This document shows, piece after piece, positions 3,667 to 21,791 of a DNA stretch of 22,063 nt (positions are counted from its first letter, which is position 1; the number at the start of each line of letters is the position of its first letter). Position numbers and translations under genes: made by a program. Source of the stretch: a virus (Duplodnaviria; Heunggongvirae; Uroviricota; Caudoviricetes); the IMG/VR virus record IMGVR_UViG_2778261447_000003; one strand, 5' to 3'. The notes beneath the pieces are model-generated. The model saw only the letters and a program-made list of their open reading frames with translations. It had not been told where the DNA came from and did no database searches.

Positions 3667-4314
3667 CTACCGTCCTATCGAAATATAACTGAATCTGTAT
3701 TGCTGTGAGATATCACTGGTTGCCACACGCCACGCTGAATTACTGATATGTTCAAAATTTACAGACAAAACCTGCGGGGCAGGATTCGACGGGTCTGACT
3801 GAACGGCATCAGACATAACACTGACTGAAACCATCGGCTGATTAGGGAATGGTATAGGGAAGTGTCCACTGATAAAGCGGGTCGTGTTTCCTGAAAAAGT
3901 GCCAAACTGAACAATATATCCACCTGGTAGCCTGAACCATCCCGAACCAGAAGCGAATGCTCCCATATCCGGTATCTGATTATCTCCTGTGCCCACATTC
4001 CGTTTTGCCGCTTCTCCCAAACCAAGGTTTTCGAGAGCCGTTTTCACCGTGCCATCCGATTTGATATCGCCAAACGGATTCTTGCGGCTTAACAGCAGCG
4101 CACGAAGCGCGGTAAGCAGCTGGTCGTGCCGCGCCTTCTCCAGGCTGGCACCGGATGCCTCCACCACGCTACAAAGCTCTTCCTGCAACATGTCAAAGTA
4201 GTCATCATCCAGATCGGTGGCAGGCGTGCCGGTCTGGGGGTTGCCACGGGTAAAACCGTTCTTACCCGCGCCGAACTTATCCTTCTGCGCGGTTTTCGTG
4301 TCTATGCGATGCAT
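3667..4314 (-). CDS. Tail fibre protein (215 aa): constant N-terminus of about 97 aa fused through the right crossover site to a variable C-terminus
   Basis: ATG at 4312-4314 with GGAG Shine-Dalgarno. The crossover site is read in frame as ENLGLGE. Synteny places it between the baseplate genes and tfa. Possibly the stfP counterpart. Confidence 0.7.
4012..4037. repeat. Invertase crossover site, right (hix/gix/pix-like 26-bp site)
   Basis: ttctcccaaacc-aa-ggttttcgagag; its reverse complement is ctctcgaaaacc-tt-ggtttgggagaa. The inner half is identical to the left site; the outer half is close to the hix consensus. Confidence 0.75.
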
Positions 4315-15407: not shown

Positions 15408-15608
15408 TCAGCCCTCTTTACTGGTCGTGGCTTTTTTCTCTTTTGCCGCTTTACTGCTTTTTGCACTGGTTCCGCGCTCTGCTAACCCGGCCTGAAGTGC
15501 AATCTCCTGCACCCGGGCAGGAAGCGCCCCGTCGTCATACTCACCGGCCCGAATGACCTCAACACGCATACCGTCCGGTGACCATTTCAGATCTTGTTTC
15601 AGGATCAT
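15408..15608 (-). CDS. Hypothetical small protein with Lys/Ser-rich C-terminal tail (66 aa)
   Basis: ORF between the major capsid gene and the connector gene; C-terminus SAKSSKAAKEKKATTSKEG. Function unknown. Confidence 0.4.
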   Translation of the reverse strand: MILKQDLKWSPDGMRVEVIRAGEYDDGALPARVQEIALQAGLAERGTSAKSSKAAKEKKATTSKEG

Positions 15609-15657: not shown

Positions 15658-16863
15658 TTACGCCGCTGCAATCTTCAGCAGTTTGATGGCCTGCGAATCG
15701 ACCAGCATCCCGCCGGTGCGCTTGGTGGTATAAAAACCGACAAACGGTTTATTGGTGTACGGATCACGCAGAATGCGGGTGCCGATACGGTCAACGATGG
15801 TGTAACCCCGTTTGAAGTTACCAAATGCAATGGCTTTCGCATCAGCGGCGATATCCGGCATCTGTTCGTTTTCAGCGATACCGTAACCCGCCAGAGAGGA
15901 CGGCTGCCCCAGTTCCAGCCCCGGACGCCACAGATAGTTACCCTCGCTGTCTTTCAGCAGACGGATGGCAAACAGGCTGTTGTTGTTCATCATGAACTTC
16001 GCGCCAGTGCGGTGTGCCTTACGTAGCGTGTAAATCAGTTTGATAATGGCGTCTGCGGTCACCGTCGTCGCTTCACCGGATACAATATGCTGAAGTTTGC
16101 CGAACGCCCGGACCTTGTCGGTTTCATCAGTGGATTCATACGCCAGGAACCCTTTCGGCTTCTTGGTGCCATCGCCTGAGGTAAAGGCAATTTCTTCCTG
16201 TTCGGCAAATTCGGTTGCCAGCTCGCTGTTGATCCAGGCCTCTACGTTGAAGAAGGCATCGTCCAGCATTTTCTGGGTAGCCTGCGGGTTGCCGTAGATT
16301 TCCCCCATGAGAGGTTCAATCAGCTCCAGTCTGGAGGTGGCAGTCTGGGATCGCGTATCCGTTTCCCCCACCCATCCGGAAGCCGTACCGCCCAGATTCA
16401 CCAGTTTTTTGTAGTCGGAACCGCCAACGGTGATCACCGTGGCTTCCTGACGCATCACCACTTCATCTTTCAGCAGGTTAAGAATGTTGCGATCCAGTTC
16501 TTCCGGCACGGCGTAGCCACCGTCTTCATCGGTACCCACCTGCAATGCCTTACGCTCCAGATCGCGCAGACCGTCTTCACGGCCTTTACGCAGGAAGCCC
16601 ACAAACGCCTCTTTATGCTCGGTGGCCAGTTTATTTTGCGCTCCACCAGCCGGACGTTTCAGCTCAAGCAGCTCTTTTTCAAGGTCGCTTTTGAGATTTT
16701 CCAGCTCGCTGAGTTTCCCGTTCAGGGTTTCCACCTGCCCGGCAAGCTTGCCTTTTTCCTGCTCAATCGCATCCACGCGCTTGTCGTTCTTTACTTTGAA
16801 GTCGTCAAACTTCTGCTGCAGCTCCTGCGCGATCTGTTCCACATCTTTAATATCAACCGCCAT
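15658..16863 (-). CDS. Major capsid protein, HK97 fold family (401 aa)
   Basis: N-terminal coiled-coil scaffold-like (delta) domain rich in E, K and L, followed by a capsid-like body; follows the prohead protease gene. Confidence 0.88.
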   Translation of the reverse strand: MAVDIKDVEQIAQELQQKFDDFKVKNDKRVDAIEQEKGKLAGQVETLNGKLSELENLKSDLEKELLELKRPAGGAQNKLATEHKEAFVGFLRKGREDGLRDLERKALQVGTDEDGGYAVPEELDRNILNLLKDEVVMRQEATVITVGGSDYKKLVNLGGTASGWVGETDTRSQTATSRLELIEPLMGEIYGNPQATQKMLDDAFFNVEAWINSELATEFAEQEEIAFTSGDGTKKPKGFLAYESTDETDKVRAFGKLQHIVSGEATTVTADAIIKLIYTLRKAHRTGAKFMMNNNSLFAIRLLKDSEGNYLWRPGLELGQPSSLAGYGIAENEQMPDIAADAKAIAFGNFKRGYTIVDRIGTRILRDPYTNKPFVGFYTTKRTGGMLVDSQAIKLLKIAAA

Positions 16864-16877
16864 CGTATTTCTCCTGA

Positions 16878-17528
16878 TTAGAAGTTCAGATTTTTCAGTG
16901 CATTCAGTGCAGAGCCCACATCCTCAGCGTCGCGCAGGGACAGTGCGCCATAGCCCCCGGCCATGAATGCTTTGGCCTGGGTACGGGAGAGTCCGACATC
17001 ACGCAGGACTCTTTCGATTTTTTTCTGTTCGGGGATTTCACCGCGGGCCAGCGCGTTCTTGACGTCGCTGATCCGCGCCTCGTCGTTAGACGGGAACGTC
17101 ACCAGACTGACTTCCCAGAGGTCGATTTCTTTCAACAGAAAGGCTTCTTTACTCCGGTCGTATTCCCAGTCTTTCAGGACGTACCCAATAGAAAGGCCGG
17201 TTAACGAACCGGCCTTCATGTGTGCATGTGCGCGTTTTGCGAGGGGATCATCATCAATGAGCAACCGTCCCCTGACGTAAAGCCCGACATCGTCTTCCTT
17301 CATTTCGGTATAAACACCGATGGGTTCATCCATGCGGTGCTGCCAGAGCAGCGCAGGTAACGCTTTTCTGTCACTCCACGCCCGCAGGGAAGCAGCAAAT
17401 GCCCCGGACATCACCACATCATCGTGGCTGTCCTTTACACCAAAGACGGAGCCATACCCTTCAAACTCACCGGAGTCACTGACAGATTTCAGACTCAGCG
17501 GTACATCAAGACGTTGTTTCGTCTGCAT
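16878..17528 (-). CDS. Prohead maturation protease, HK97 family (about 216 aa)
   Basis: Position between portal and capsid genes. I prefer the ATG at 17526-17528 (AAGGA Shine-Dalgarno) to the track start at 17564, which has none. Confidence 0.8.
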   Translation of the reverse strand: MQTKQRLDVPLSLKSVSDSGEFEGYGSVFGVKDSHDDVVMSGAFAASLRAWSDRKALPALLWQHRMDEPIGVYTEMKEDDVGLYVRGRLLIDDDPLAKRAHAHMKAGSLTGLSIGYVLKDWEYDRSKEAFLLKEIDLWEVSLVTFPSNDEARISDVKNALARGEIPEQKKIERVLRDVGLSRTQAKAFMAGGYGALSLRDAEDVGSALNALKNLNF

Positions 17529-18747
17529 TGGCGTTATCCTTCTGCTTACCGGCTTTACTGCCATCGGAGGGTTTCGTGGTCATATTCATCGGTGTGAGAT
17601 AGACATCACCACCGGGACGCGGATTCATATCTTCCAGGTCGCGGCAGTCATTGGGAGAGTAAATTCCCCAGTTGATCCCGGTGGCATAGGCTTCAAAACG
17701 GGACTTCATATCCCCGCGCAGTAACGCCCCGGCGTTAAATTTGGCGTAATAAATGCCCTGCTTACTTTTTCGTACCAGTCCGGTGTTGATCCGCTGCTCA
17801 ATGCGGGTCAGATACGGCACCAGTGAATAGTTGATAAATCCCAGCCCCAGCTCTTCGATATTGTTGAAGGTGGCGCGATCGGTGTTCTGCACCATGTGCA
17901 ATGGCACACGGAACAGACGACAGATTTCTTCAAGCTGAAACTTGCGGGTTTCCAGGAACTGGCTGTCCTCGGCGTTCAGCGCCATCGACTTCCAGTCCAG
18001 CCCCATCTCAAGGATCATCGGGCGGTGAGCATTACCAAGCCCGGTGTGACGCTCCTCAAAATCTTTCTTCAGGCGCTCGTAAGCCTGATCCGACAACGTC
18101 TGCTCTGTACGCAACACACCCGACGTCACCGCACCATTGCTGAACAGTCTGGCCCCGTGCTCTTCGGTCGCTGCCGCCAGCGATATTGCCTCGCGGGCAT
18201 AGGCGATGGGATTCAGCCCCACCAGTCCGTCCAGCGTCAGCGTGCGCACATGCCAGATATCTTCCTGGCTCAGCACATCCGTGGAGCCGTCCGGGAATGT
18301 GACCTGATAGACCGGCTCCCAGCTACTGTTAAGCTTCGGTACCACACAGCCGGGATCGACGGGCAGCAGTTCAGCCACTTCGCCAAATGCTTTCACTTTG
18401 TAGGCGTAAAAGTTTCCCCTCAGGCACAGACAGGTGACCACCAGCTCCCAGAACTCCTGCGGCGTCATATAGCCATTGGGATGCGTGGAGATCAGTTTAT
18501 GCAGACGTTCGCCGGTGGCTCTCTGCTTCAGGCTGCCGTTCAGGTGATACAGATTGCAGGGCAACATCCCGACCGACTCTGCCAGCACTCTGACGCAGGA
18601 AAAAACCGCCGTCAGTCGCATGGCCCGCTGACTGCTGATCTGCTTTCCGGTATAGGTGTCGTAGGACAACCCGATGGCATCCGCCAGCTCTGCTGGCGTG
18701 GTCACCGGTGCGTCACTTTTTCGTTGAAATAATCCAGAAAAGAACAC
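17506..18747 (-). CDS. Portal protein, HK97 family (413 aa)
   Basis: GTG start at 18745-18747 with GGAGG Shine-Dalgarno, overlapping the stop of the upstream small ORF; size and position after the large terminase. Confidence 0.88.
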   Translation of the reverse strand: MFFSGLFQRKSDAPVTTPAELADAIGLSYDTYTGKQISSQRAMRLTAVFSCVRVLAESVGMLPCNLYHLNGSLKQRATGERLHKLISTHPNGYMTPQEFWELVVTCLCLRGNFYAYKVKAFGEVAELLPVDPGCVVPKLNSSWEPVYQVTFPDGSTDVLSQEDIWHVRTLTLDGLVGLNPIAYAREAISLAAATEEHGARLFSNGAVTSGVLRTEQTLSDQAYERLKKDFEERHTGLGNAHRPMILEMGLDWKSMALNAEDSQFLETRKFQLEEICRLFRVPLHMVQNTDRATFNNIEELGLGFINYSLVPYLTRIEQRINTGLVRKSKQGIYYAKFNAGALLRGDMKSRFEAYATGINWGIYSPNDCRDLEDMNPRPGGDVYLTPMNMTTKPSDGSKAGKQKDNANADETTS

Positions 18748-18929
18748 TATTTACCTCCGCCGACAGACGACTGTGTACGGTCGAGATATCGCGCCACCAG
18801 CCACGACCAGAACAGGCACAACGCCCCGGCAACAACAAACCCCGCCGGGGGATAAATCAGCCAGGCACCATACGCCAGCAAAAGCGCCCCCAGCACGCCC
18901 ACCAGAGGCGCGAGAATCAGCATGATCAT
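18747..18929 (-). CDS. Small two-helix membrane protein (60 aa)
   Basis: [51 protein letters not shown] has two hydrophobic helices. GAGGT Shine-Dalgarno 5 nt upstream of the ATG; translationally coupled to the portal gene. Possibly the counterpart of e14 YmfR. Confidence 0.6.
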
Positions 18930-18940
18930 AATTACCTCAG

Positions 18941-20674
18941 TTAAAGCGAGCGGATCCCATAGGACTCAATGTGGTCAGACAGCGTGTCTTCTTTCTCGTA
19001 CAGCATGGCTCTGCCAACCGCCATAATCAGCGCAACTGCACCATCGATTTTGTTTTCCGCCTGCTCTTTGACGGGCTTCACTAAATCATCGTTACCTGGC
19101 ATGTTTTTGCCGACCACATTGCCGATACACCAGGTCATGATGGGATTGCCGTCATGATGAAAGCGTCCCGATTCAATCGCTGCCTCCAGCTCTTTCATCG
19201 GGTCGGACATATTGGCGAAGTTCTGGACGATAGTAACGGGATTCAGGTCTTCATCAGCAAGGTCATGTGACAGCCCGGTCGCTCCGAAAGGGTCGATGGG
19301 TGACTCACTGACCGGGCTGATTTTGTTCGCCGCTTTGGCCTCTTCGAGGATGTAGCGATAATCCACCTCTGCACCATCGGTAACGGTCAGAACGCCCATT
19401 TCCACCCATTTCTGAAAGCGTTCGGCTGTCCGGCGATCTTCATTTTTCTCGACGCTGTACACCGTGTCATACGGTACCCAGAAACGCGGGGCCACACTGT
19501 AGTAATGCGTTTTACCGTCAATCTCGCGGGTATAAAGTCGCGCCATGCTGTTCATATCCAGTTTACGCGCCATGTCAAAGGCCAGAATGCACGGCTGCCC
19601 CTCGAACTGCTCAAGAGTCAGTGATTTATCCTCGCAGCTCTGCCAGCTCACCAGGTTGAAATACGCCGAACGCGCCGACACCCAGATATTGAGGTGTTTT
19701 GTTTTAAAGACGTTTGCCAGACGGGCGTTATTTTTCGCACGCTGCTGCTGACTTAACAAAAATTCGCGATAAACCGACACGCCAATATTTGGATTGGCTT
19801 TTTCCAGCACCTGCGGGTTGGTCCAGTCGTCACCTTCGTCAACGGTATAGATGATCCCGAACAGTTCATCGTTGGGTACCGAACCGTTGAGCATCTCGAT
19901 AACTTCCCGTCGCTTGTCGTAGCACGGCCCCTCAATGTTGTACCCGGCAGTAGTAATGGCCCACATCAGTGGCTGACGTCGCGCCCCCATCCCGGTAAGC
20001 ATCGTGGTGTAAAGCGCATCGGTGGCGTGCTCGTGATATTCATCCACCACCGCACAGTGGGGTGATGAACCATCACCGGGGTTACCGATCAGCGGTTCAA
20101 ACCGCGCGCCATCCTCCGGACGATTCATGTTTGAGGCGTTAACCTCAATCCCGAACGCTTCCGTCAGCATGGGTGTGCGTTTACACATCAGTCGCGCCGG
20201 GCGAAAGACTTCCCACGCCTGTTTCTCTGTCGTGGCACCGGAATACACTTCCGCGCCAAACTCGTTATCACAGACAAAACAATACAGGGCAACACCGGCA
20301 GAGATTGCCGATTTGCCGTTCTTACGGGGGATTTCGGTATACACCTCCCGGAAGCGGCGCAACCGGGTGCCTTTATTGACCCAGCCAAACGCACAGCAGA
20401 TCACAAAGAGCTGCCACGGCTCCAGCGTGATGGGCATCCTCTTGAATGCCCACTCACCCTTGGTGTGCGGCAACAGCTGAATAAATTTCGCGGCCCGTTC
20501 AGCCAGGTCCTTGTCGAAGCGGTAACGAAACGACTTACTTTTTTCCGCCATCAGGTCATCAAGATGGCGCTGGCAGGCCTGAATCACAAACTGGCAGGCC
20601 ACAATCTTTCCGCGAACGACATCCCGGGCATACTGATTGGCAGCATTTACGTTGGGGTAAGATTTCCGGCTCAT
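18941..20674 (-). CDS. Terminase large subunit (577 aa)
   Basis: Walker A-like PRKNGKS, C-terminal nuclease-like domain, size; start overlaps the small-terminase stop (ATGA). Confidence 0.92.
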
Positions 20675-21165
20675 GATTCGATGATTTTCAGAAACGGGTT
20701 AGTGGCTTTCTTCTTCCCCGCCAGGCCAATCAGACGCTGGCGGCTGCTGGGGTCGAGTCCGAGCATTGCCCCCGTACTGCTCATCTCGGACTCCTGTTCT
20801 TTTTTGGCGGTCAGCTCCGGATTTTTGACCATACCGCCCATTGCACCGGTGATGGTATTGCCCTGTCTGGCAATATTTTTCACGGCACGTCGCCAGAACT
20901 CGTAGGCCACGCACCACCGCTCAAGCACTGCGAGGTCAGTCACGCACAGCAGGCCCTGACCGCAGAGTTCTTTGGTTGTCAGTTGCCACATGATCGTAGC
21001 GAGAGGGAGATCTTCTTCAGCGAACCACTCCGGTGGCTCAACACCTTTGATGGGCGTAAAAACAGGTTCATCTTTATTCAGGGCTCGCTTGCCGGGGTTT
21101 CCGGCCAGCGCCTTGCGCGCCGTTGGCTTGGGGCGACGCCCGGAACGCCCCGCCGTTCCAGCCAT
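20671..21165 (-). CDS. Terminase small subunit, P27 family (about 164 aa)
   Basis: Basic N-terminus; directly upstream of and overlapping the large terminase. The track start at 21174 is a GTG; the ATG at 21163-21165 has an AGGAG Shine-Dalgarno. Confidence 0.8.
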
Positions 21166-21290
21166 ATGCGGCACTCCTGGTTAAATTTCATTTTTCGCGG
21201 GTATAAAAAAACGATGGGGCGGGCAGTCCGGAAGACGTCAGGTCACAGGGATTTGCCCCCCCCCTCCCCTCTGGCAGTGGGAACTGGTTC

Positions 21291-21641
21291 TTACTTCAGC
21301 CGTTCACGGGCCGTCTTCGCCTTATGACACGGCCAGCACAAACTCTGCAGATTACTGTCGACATCAGTGCCGCCATGCGATTTAGGGTTGATGTGGTCAA
21401 CGGTCTTCGCCTCACGCACCACACCAGCACGCAGACATAACTGACACAGGCCTTTGTCACGCTTGAGCACACGTTCACGGATAACATCCCATTTCGAACC
21501 ATAACCGCGCTGGTGTCGGGATTGTCCTGACTTGTATTGCTTCCAGCCTTCGCTTTTGTGGCTTTCGCAGTAGCCTGACGAGTCAGTGGTGGTATGGGGG
21601 CAGCCGCGAACGCGGCAGGCTTTTGGGGTTCGTGGTGGCAT
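21291..21641 (-). CDS. Phage HNH endonuclease of the packaging module (about 116 aa)
   Basis: HNH/zinc motif CQLCLRAGVVREAKTVDHINPKSHGGTDVDSNLQSLCWPCHKAK. ATG at 21639-21641 with AGAGGA Shine-Dalgarno; the track ORF extends 21 codons further upstream. HNH next to terminase is typical of HK97-like packaging. Confidence 0.8.
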   Translation of the reverse strand: MPPRTPKACRVRGCPHTTTDSSGYCESHKSEGWKQYKSGQSRHQRGYGSKWDVIRERVLKRDKGLCQLCLRAGVVREAKTVDHINPKSHGGTDVDSNLQSLCWPCHKAKTARERLK

Positions 21642-21791
21642 TGCATAATCCTCTTGGATGGTTCGCGTGCGATACGTGGCATCCTTCTCAGAATCGAATC
21701 GCACTCCACTCCGGTTTTGCCATAAACGATCTTTTATGCTTCGCTGGATGTAGTTGATAGTTGTTGAAACTCAATGAACAGGAGTTCACAA

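Follow-up and report, generated by a model that had tools for sequence, protein, structure and literature searches.

In phage lambda, gpW is a soluble head-completion protein; in HK97, gp15 is a small inner-membrane superinfection-exclusion moron encoded in the morphogenesis operon. The portal initiator of T4, gp20, is bound to the membrane and depends on gp40, a viral chaperone (PMC9958956). Here we consider a gene situated between the large terminase (terL) and portal genes in a 22,063-nt stretch of viral DNA (Caudoviricetes; IMG/VR record IMGVR_UViG_2778261447_000003), called below the window. A first-pass annotation made from the sequence alone had placed this open reading frame (ORF) exactly at 18747–18929; we add that it runs on the minus strand, from 18929 to 18747, with 60 codons and a TAG stop. 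Its product is identical at 61 of 61 positions (60 residues and the stop) to RefSeq ‘protein YmfR’ (WP_000605606.1) of the K-12-type prophage e14, a correspondence that the annotation had put forward as possible. The gene is already known, as the named, uncharacterised ymfR and a member of PHROG 502. We saw that ymfR and its relatives, coding for predicted two-helix membrane hairpins, accompany one broad group of HK97-family portals in strict synteny and with translational coupling.

The window ORF had 167 homologues. Searched against 1.84 billion proteins, a profile of 17 enterobacterial homologues retrieved 383 cluster representatives; almost all had 45–90 residues and the pattern ...G..G..L.SYGAWL(I/V)Y.PAG(F/Y)I..G... 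With a broader profile we obtained 1870 clusters at 90% identity, the top 120 of which had 49–76 residues each, had no Pfam domain, and came from alpha-, beta- and gamma-proteobacteria. One family match, in Defluviitaleaceae, was rejected as spurious; it lies inside a larger membrane protein.

A search for related loci with the window portal gave just near-identical E. coli prophages; distant loci were collected with a degenerate DNA pattern for the family motif. The pattern identified 81 IMG/VR loci, mostly from high-GC environmental viruses, and 79 of them were analysable. The ORF directly 3′ of the hairpin gene was a homologue of the window portal in all 79 loci (phmmer E-values between 1e-5 and 1e-240). 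Where the start of the portal gene could be assigned, a 1- or 4-nt overlap with the hairpin stop was the usual arrangement. In 73 loci a terL homologue ended just 5′ of the hairpin gene; in the remaining six the DNA available upstream was shorter than ~1.4 kb, and in five of these shorter than 500 nt.

The same arrangement was found in named genomes. Right after terL, a ymfR homologue is present in SfI, SfII, SfIV, ST64B (Sb3), phiP27, phi467, Klebsiella phages and PY54. Precomputed Pfam calls in Aliamphritea gave the order HNH, small terminase (terS), terL, hairpin, portal, protease, capsid, and a Nitrobacter genome had this order as well, with no Pfam call for terS. Azospirillum phage Cd keeps the terL–hairpin–portal order, its gp30 being a family member. 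Cluster J mycobacteriophages also carry the hairpin (Zelink gp11, with a match to phrog_502 at E 3e-17, and Omega gp12), in both cases with an ATGA overlap onto the portal; in Omega the order HNH–terS–terL–hairpin–portal is that of the window. The terL–hairpin–portal synteny therefore spans phages of Proteobacteria and Actinobacteria, hosts with very different envelopes.

The hairpin gene travels with the portal, not with terL. In Serratia loci terL is 35% identical and the portal 73% identical, and the hairpin is kept. Some E. coli genomes match ymfR and the portal without the end of terL, while others match the end of terL only; in the latter, as in SfV, another portal (28% identical) is found, and a divergent hairpin of 53 residues comes before it. 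Phages SfI and SfV are reported to share 98% identity as far as about nt 2211, a point inside the 3′ end of terL, and SfI orf3–orf7 follow e14 (PMC3636060). Among 14 portal lineages inspected, six had a hairpin ORF: the ymfR clade, SfV, vB_EcoS-733R4, Vibrio K263, Azospirillum Cd and the cluster J mycobacteriophages.

The SfV-type hairpin belongs to PHROG 7105. Like YmfR, it is a two-helix protein (53 aa) encoded between terL and portal and overlapping the portal start; it cross-matches phrog_502 (E 5.7e-6) as well as the YmfR family profile (20 bits). Unlike YmfR, it does not have the YGAW..YPPAGF signature and has CGVYLQFGMAPA instead. The gene is unannotated in SfV NC_003444 and is listed as hypothetical protein WP_015364398.1 in E. 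coli. We located the ORF at about nt 2289–2450 of NC_003444 and at 2257–2418 of E. coli UTAK-14; the annotated SfV portal start (2392) falls within it. The true SfV portal start is probably a GTG giving VLLDALFRS..., as called in E. coli by the NCBI annotation pipeline PGAP.

Signals at both junctions of ymfR were as the first-pass annotation had described them, and were found in relatives too. In the window terL ends with TAA (18943–18941, minus strand), followed by an 11-nt spacer in which a Shine-Dalgarno (SD) sequence GAGG (18935–18938, minus) stands 5 nt before the ymfR ATG (18929–18927); the GAGG is kept in relatives from E. coli, Mangrovibacter, Citrobacter and Scandinavium. At the other end, the TAG of ymfR (18749–18747) and the GTG of the portal gene (18747–18745) overlap by one base, TAGTG. 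The portal SD, GGAGG (18754–18758, minus), is inside ymfR codons 57–59 (GGC GGA GGT AAA), and GGAGG, GGGGG or GGGAGG is retained at this position in relatives. The junction in relatives reads TAGTG, TAATG or TGATG and is followed by the conserved portal N-terminus MFF...; with both the junction and the N-terminus conserved, the GTG start and the coupling should be considered real. The portal gene itself (17506–18747, minus; 413 aa) matches PF04860 (Pfam E 3.7e-108).

An N-terminal aromatic/amphipathic motif (MFFSGLF, WWSRFYARLF, WWARLKSWF) is shared by HK97-family portals. Those preceded by a hairpin begin at this motif, and several of the hairpin-less ones have 5–15 extra residues.

Two transmembrane (TM) helices had been proposed for the product, and all the predictions we made agree with this. 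The 19-residue Kyte-Doolittle means have maxima of 2.67 and 1.81, and the grand average of hydropathy is 1.22. The AlphaFold2 model (built with 17 homologues; mean pLDDT confidence score 76) has helices at residues 2–25 and 27–57, with the helix broken at residue 26. Lys and Arg are rare in the turn: the average over 300 family members was 0.11 residues, and 89% had none there, while 96% had Lys or Arg at a terminus. Hydropathy, the AlphaFold2 model and these positive-inside statistics together predict an N-in/C-in helical hairpin, with both ends cytoplasmic. TM helix 1, predicted from hydropathy, the model and invariant columns, takes codons 2–25 (18855–18926, minus) and has conserved G11, G14, L18, G21 and W23; the Y-P-P-A-G turn, codons 26–30 (18840–18854, minus), predicted to be periplasmic, is the most conserved signature of the family in the alignments. 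TM helix 2, codons 31–47 (18789–18839, minus), has G35, C38, L39, W41 and S42 conserved in the enterobacterial subfamily; then comes a short, variable basic tail, predicted to be cytoplasmic, codons 48–60 (18750–18788, minus), whose last three codons hold the portal ribosome-binding site (RBS). Across 47 distant family members G14, G21, W23, G30 and G35 are invariant. A few high-GC members are tandem duplications of the hairpin (four helices, 102–122 aa), which hints at self-association as dimers or oligomers.

Selection acts differently on the two parts of the protein. In 38 E. coli-type alleles the rates of non-synonymous (pN) and synonymous (pS) change were 0.044 and 0.166 in the hairpin (codons 1–47) and 0.186 and 0.251 in the tail; in the last three codons pS was just 0.023. 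The pN/pS ratio is 0.19–0.27 for the hairpin core versus 0.74 for the tail: the core is under purifying selection and the tail is relaxed. Over 76 distinct loci the hairpin core had a ratio of 0.19 and the portal one of 0.012 (terL was not used, its ratio being inflated by mosaic terL lineages); thus, the peptide is constrained, though far less than the portal. The tail varies in the alignment except for a terminal GG(K/E/D). As synonymous change is nearly absent from the last three codons, this conserved end reflects the portal RBS rather than a protein motif.

The gene belongs to a late operon and has no recognisable promoter of its own. In a consensus promoter scan, which is a weak test, no sigma70-like site was seen nearer than ~510 nt 5′ of ymfR, the nearest minus-strand site being at 19470–19442, and the number of promoter-like sites in the scanned region was at chance level. 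In K-12, ymfR mRNA goes up (log2 4.52) together with other e14 genes under an SOS-inducing compound (PMC10012262). Two terminator-like hairpins with T-rich tails are situated inside ymfR (18911–18884 and 18853–18839, minus), counts within chance; the SfII record has a terminator annotated at the same place in the homologue. They are probably a by-product of Gly, Ala and Pro codons. We also considered an RNA element in place of a protein and rejected it: the 211-nt ymfR region folds no better than shuffled sequences (z −0.82), and the terminator-like counts, as said, are those of chance.

What could a hairpin of this kind do? Since synthesis of the product is coupled to that of the portal and the two genes are inherited together, the product would most likely act with the portal at the inner membrane. 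Also, co-inheritance and coupling across two phyla with different envelopes make a target particular to the host, such as a receptor for exclusion, less likely, and point to a phage-intrinsic partner or a generic membrane effect. We therefore tentatively favour, as a candidate that may quite possibly be wrong, a function of YmfR as an inner-membrane accessory, absent from the virion, in the assembly of portal or procapsid, similar in role to T4 gp40. YmfR would insert in the cytoplasmic membrane as a hairpin with both ends in the cytoplasm, may oligomerise via the glycine-rich faces of its helices, and would tether or nucleate the portal ring or the procapsid at the membrane; in lineages without the gene, such as HK97, it would be dispensable. 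One could speculate further, with yet more reserve, that across the cross-phylum HK97-like group hairpins of this family form oligomers within the inner membrane on which the dodecameric portal is anchored or nucleated, procapsid assembly starting on the membrane as in T4. Membrane anchoring of assembly fits best among the roles suggested in the first-pass annotation. As for the virion, mass spectrometry of Omega found the portal gp13 and 16 other proteins, and gp12 was not among them (PMC3706429); this is weak evidence that the family protein is not structural.

Several observations weigh against a role in assembly. The failure to see a small hydrophobic protein in virion mass spectrometry tells little by itself. 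The conserved residues are those in the bilayer and in the turn predicted to be periplasmic, whereas the cytoplasmic ends, the sole parts that could reach the portal, are short and variable. The hairpin pN/pS is ~15 times that of the portal (0.19 versus 0.012). Many HK97-family portals, including that of HK97 itself, assemble with no hairpin gene: the hairpin was absent from eight of the 14 lineages inspected (HK97, Klebsiella P7641, Acinetobacter fEg-Aba01, Paraburkholderia IPK, Moraxella Mcat15, Burkholderia vB_E354, NatCom_43819 and a Coprococcus phage). A mirror-tree comparison of 42 environmental loci gave hairpin, portal and terL distance correlations of ~0.16–0.19 (rho 0.19 for hairpin and portal), at a divergence too high to inform; in the 16 pairs with close portals and distant terL genes, the hairpin distance was 0.30 versus 0.51 on average. 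Finally, synteny and coupling prove co-expression and co-inheritance, not physical interaction; the assembly role, which we hold tentatively, is suggested by sequence and context.

Other explanations have to be weighed against the same data. It is unlikely, in our opinion, that YmfR is a late membrane-active peptide unrelated to assembly, of holin, antiholin, pinholin or viroporin type, altering membrane potential or the timing of lysis. The build of the protein would suit such a peptide (two helices, N-in/C-in as predicted, small size, a basic C-terminus as in class II holins), and so would its glycine-rich helices, the tandem duplications suggestive of oligomers, the concentration of conservation in the membrane-embedded part, and its retention across hosts with different envelopes, which fits a generic bilayer target. 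However, an endolysin neighbour was never seen, the gene being always between terL and portal in the loci examined; no Pfam holin family matched YmfR or 10 distant members at E ≤ 1; the Met1/Met3 pair, far from being a conserved dual start, is limited to the allele group of the window (Met1-Ile2-Met3), others beginning with MFL, MIL or MLL; and the tail is short and variable. SfI and similar relatives have a separate lambda-like lysis cassette. The holin-like role proposed in the first-pass annotation is thus disfavoured. Rather improbable, too, is that ymfR serves mainly as a coupling ORF, whose translation would feed ribosomes to the portal start, set the terL:portal ratio and perhaps tether the late mRNA to the membrane, with the peptide itself of minor importance. 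The portal SD inside the last ymfR codons, the frozen synonymous sites of the last three of them (pS 0.023) and the conserved 1- or 4-nt stop/start overlap all speak for this explanation; moreover, terL stop and portal start overlap or adjoin each other in the hairpin-less HK97, fEg-Aba01 and P7641. (The other five hairpin-less lineages have a terL–portal gap of 7–76 nt, which in the Coprococcus phage contains a small non-membrane ORF.) Yet a mere coupling ORF would not be expected to show constraint on the peptide (pN/pS 0.19–0.27) or invariant Gly, Trp and Pro residues across members 35–50% identical with very different GC and codon usage, and there would be no reason for it to stay a membrane hairpin in phages of both Proteobacteria and Actinobacteria.

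Superinfection exclusion had been suggested too; we consider a moron-type protein for exclusion or defence, stopping the entry of DNA from other phages as HK97 gp15 does, very improbable. PHROGs files phrog_502 under a moron category, small inner-membrane exclusion proteins do exist in morphogenesis operons (HK97 gp15), and ymfR is intact in the otherwise decayed e14 of K-12; still, an intact 183-nt ORF in a young defective prophage is weak evidence. The lack of a promoter-like site within ~510 nt upstream, with terminator-like matches unsupported by the RNA fold (z −0.8), does not favour exclusion, nor does the fact that YmfR matched no PADLOC family at E ≤ 1. The fixed portal synteny over deep divergence and two host phyla is unlike that of sporadic morons, the presence of the gene being patchy only between portal clades, and ymfR mRNA follows prophage induction along with the rest of e14 (PMC10012262). 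Only slightly less far-fetched would be a hydrophobic virion-internal or ejection protein, packed near the portal and inserted in the membrane of the next host during DNA entry. Portal coupling could provide portal-like copy numbers, and the need for such a protein would be generic across host phyla; we know of no mechanism, however, that would keep such a hydrophobic ejection peptide soluble for packaging, and the clear positive-inside pattern is what one would expect of a protein resident in the inner membrane. Predicted TM segments occur in particle proteins, e.g. SPP1 TMP (PMC6316719), but the virion mass spectrometry of Omega did not list gp12 (PMC3706429). As to a chance ORF in a GC-rich spacer, with conservation at the DNA level only, one could point to its small length (183 nt), its GC content of 61% and the genome records that leave it unannotated. 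This explanation is already refuted by the homologue and selection data: hundreds to thousands of homologues keep frame, length and hairpin at 35–60% identity over a wide GC range, synonymous change exceeds non-synonymous change, SD and start are conserved, and the RNA is not unusually structured (z −0.8). The probability that remains after all these readings belongs to something not considered in our analysis.

Returning to the assembly accessory that we tentatively favour, we note how the first-pass annotation stands. Its observations were confirmed, and its interpretation was partly supported; the ORF, and not the DNA alone, is conserved in related prophages, and two hydrophobic helices are predicted. 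The statement that the gene is ‘not a canonical morphogenesis component’ holds literally, no textbook head pathway having YmfR, and fails if it is taken to mean a sporadic insertion, for the gene is a deeply conserved portal companion.

Database searches said little on function. YmfR matched phrog_502, ‘membrane protein’, with E 2.5e-28 (residues 1–55 on profile positions 3–57 of 58); the PHROGs category of this family is ‘moron, auxiliary metabolic gene and host takeover’. Five PHROG families matched at E ≤ 10, none with an assembly annotation. In Pfam, NCBIfam and PADLOC no family was found, just sub-threshold matches to unrelated two-helix modules; a sequence search of PDB gave no homologue, and Foldseek with the AlphaFold2 hairpin gave one meaningless match (E 9). 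None of the papers that we found to mention ymfR addressed its function, and our literature searches on small membrane genes between terminase and portal returned nothing relevant. Of 5426 complete E. coli genomes, 1593 had a megablast match to the locus, with the gene annotated as ymfR.

The treatment of the gene in sequence records is uneven. The homologue is unannotated in SfIV (KC814930) and PY54 (AJ564013); in several E. coli and Salmonella phage records (ON470580, ON470584, ON470603; PQ793804) it is labelled ‘head-tail joining protein W’, a label that is explained by gene position alone and has no sequence support. Near-identical prophage DNA with the ymfR locus is present in records named Bacillota metagenome-assembled genome, Edwardsiella hoshinae and ‘Enterococcus phage Efm 3-10’ (1764 bp), and related DNA in Martelella alba; these are likely cases of contamination or misbinning. 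In Shigella flexneri SFBU0723 a second copy (~4001–4179) has a frameshift: the C5 run coding for the Pro-Pro turn has lost one C. The same slip, or sequencing errors at this run, seem to account for many singleton variants in the databases.

The operon around ymfR is a standard HK97-type head and packaging module, with genes for HNH endonuclease, terS, terL, YmfR, portal, S78 protease, capsid, gp6-like connector and head-completion protein. On the minus strand of the window, the HNH endonuclease gene (21291–21704; Pfam HNH, E 1.2e-15) heads the packaging module. It is followed by the small terminase gene (20671–21174; Terminase_4/P27 family, Pfam E 2.4e-21), which shares the operon with ymfR, and by terL (18941–20674; 577 aa, TerL_ATPase and TerL_nuclease in Pfam). 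Past the portal gene come those for the prohead protease (16878–17564; Peptidase_S78, Pfam E 1.2e-31) and the HK97-type major capsid protein (15658–16863; PF05065, Pfam E 1.8e-79). The GC content of ymfR is 61% versus 54–56% in the neighbour genes. The last 59 nt of the portal gene (17506–17564) also hold the start of the protease gene, in another frame; ST64B sb4/sb5 are annotated alike. Between the capsid and gp6-like connector genes there is also a 66-aa ORF (15408–15608, minus) with a Lys/Ser/Ala-rich tail, which corresponds by position to the ST64B Sb7 hypothetical protein; a Pfam search with it gave no match.

The gene itself is catalogued; its context as a portal companion was not described in the literature we searched. 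With the strict cross-phylum association with the portal, a small membrane protein turns into a specific hypothesis for E. coli. Should the product work with the portal, it would be an overlooked component of the head module, posing the question whether HK97-like capsid assembly uses the membrane, which can be addressed in E. coli; should the assembly reading be true, a missing and widely conserved head-assembly factor has been filed as a ‘moron’. A model of the family in Pfam or NCBIfam would be justified, its labels ‘moron’ and ‘protein W’ should go, and the reference phage genomes of SfV, SfIV and PY54 miss the hairpin gene or mis-start the portal.

Compared with known systems, the closest case is e14 of K-12, which has the same gene. 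There, an intact ymfR is left between a 5′-truncated terL and a portal gene cut after ~136 codons and joined to a baseplate J remnant, whereas the window copy is in an intact e14-like prophage; the window prophage is an intact relative of e14, showing what the deleted head and tail genes of e14 looked like. The gene for lambda gpW, like ymfR, is a small gene between large terminase and portal; YmfR, however, is a predicted hydrophobic hairpin with no match to the gpW Pfam family at E ≤ 1, and the ymfR module already has an HK97-type gp6-like connector and head-completion proteins. Class II holins and pinholins (phage 21 S21) resemble YmfR in having ~60–70 residues, two TM helices, a predicted N-in/C-in topology and much glycine; they differ in that ymfR has no lysis-cassette context, conserved dual start or family match, and the YmfR tail is short and variable. 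HK97 gp15 is a lineage-specific insertion expressed from the prophage, in contrast to the deeply syntenic, promoter-less and late-induced genes of the ymfR family; to the synteny of PHROG 502 the ‘moron’ category does not fit. While T4 differs from the ymfR locus in portal family and gene order, T4 gp40 is the protein that YmfR would resemble, as a functional analogy only, in being a phage-encoded non-virion factor that ties portal assembly to the inner membrane (PMC9958956).

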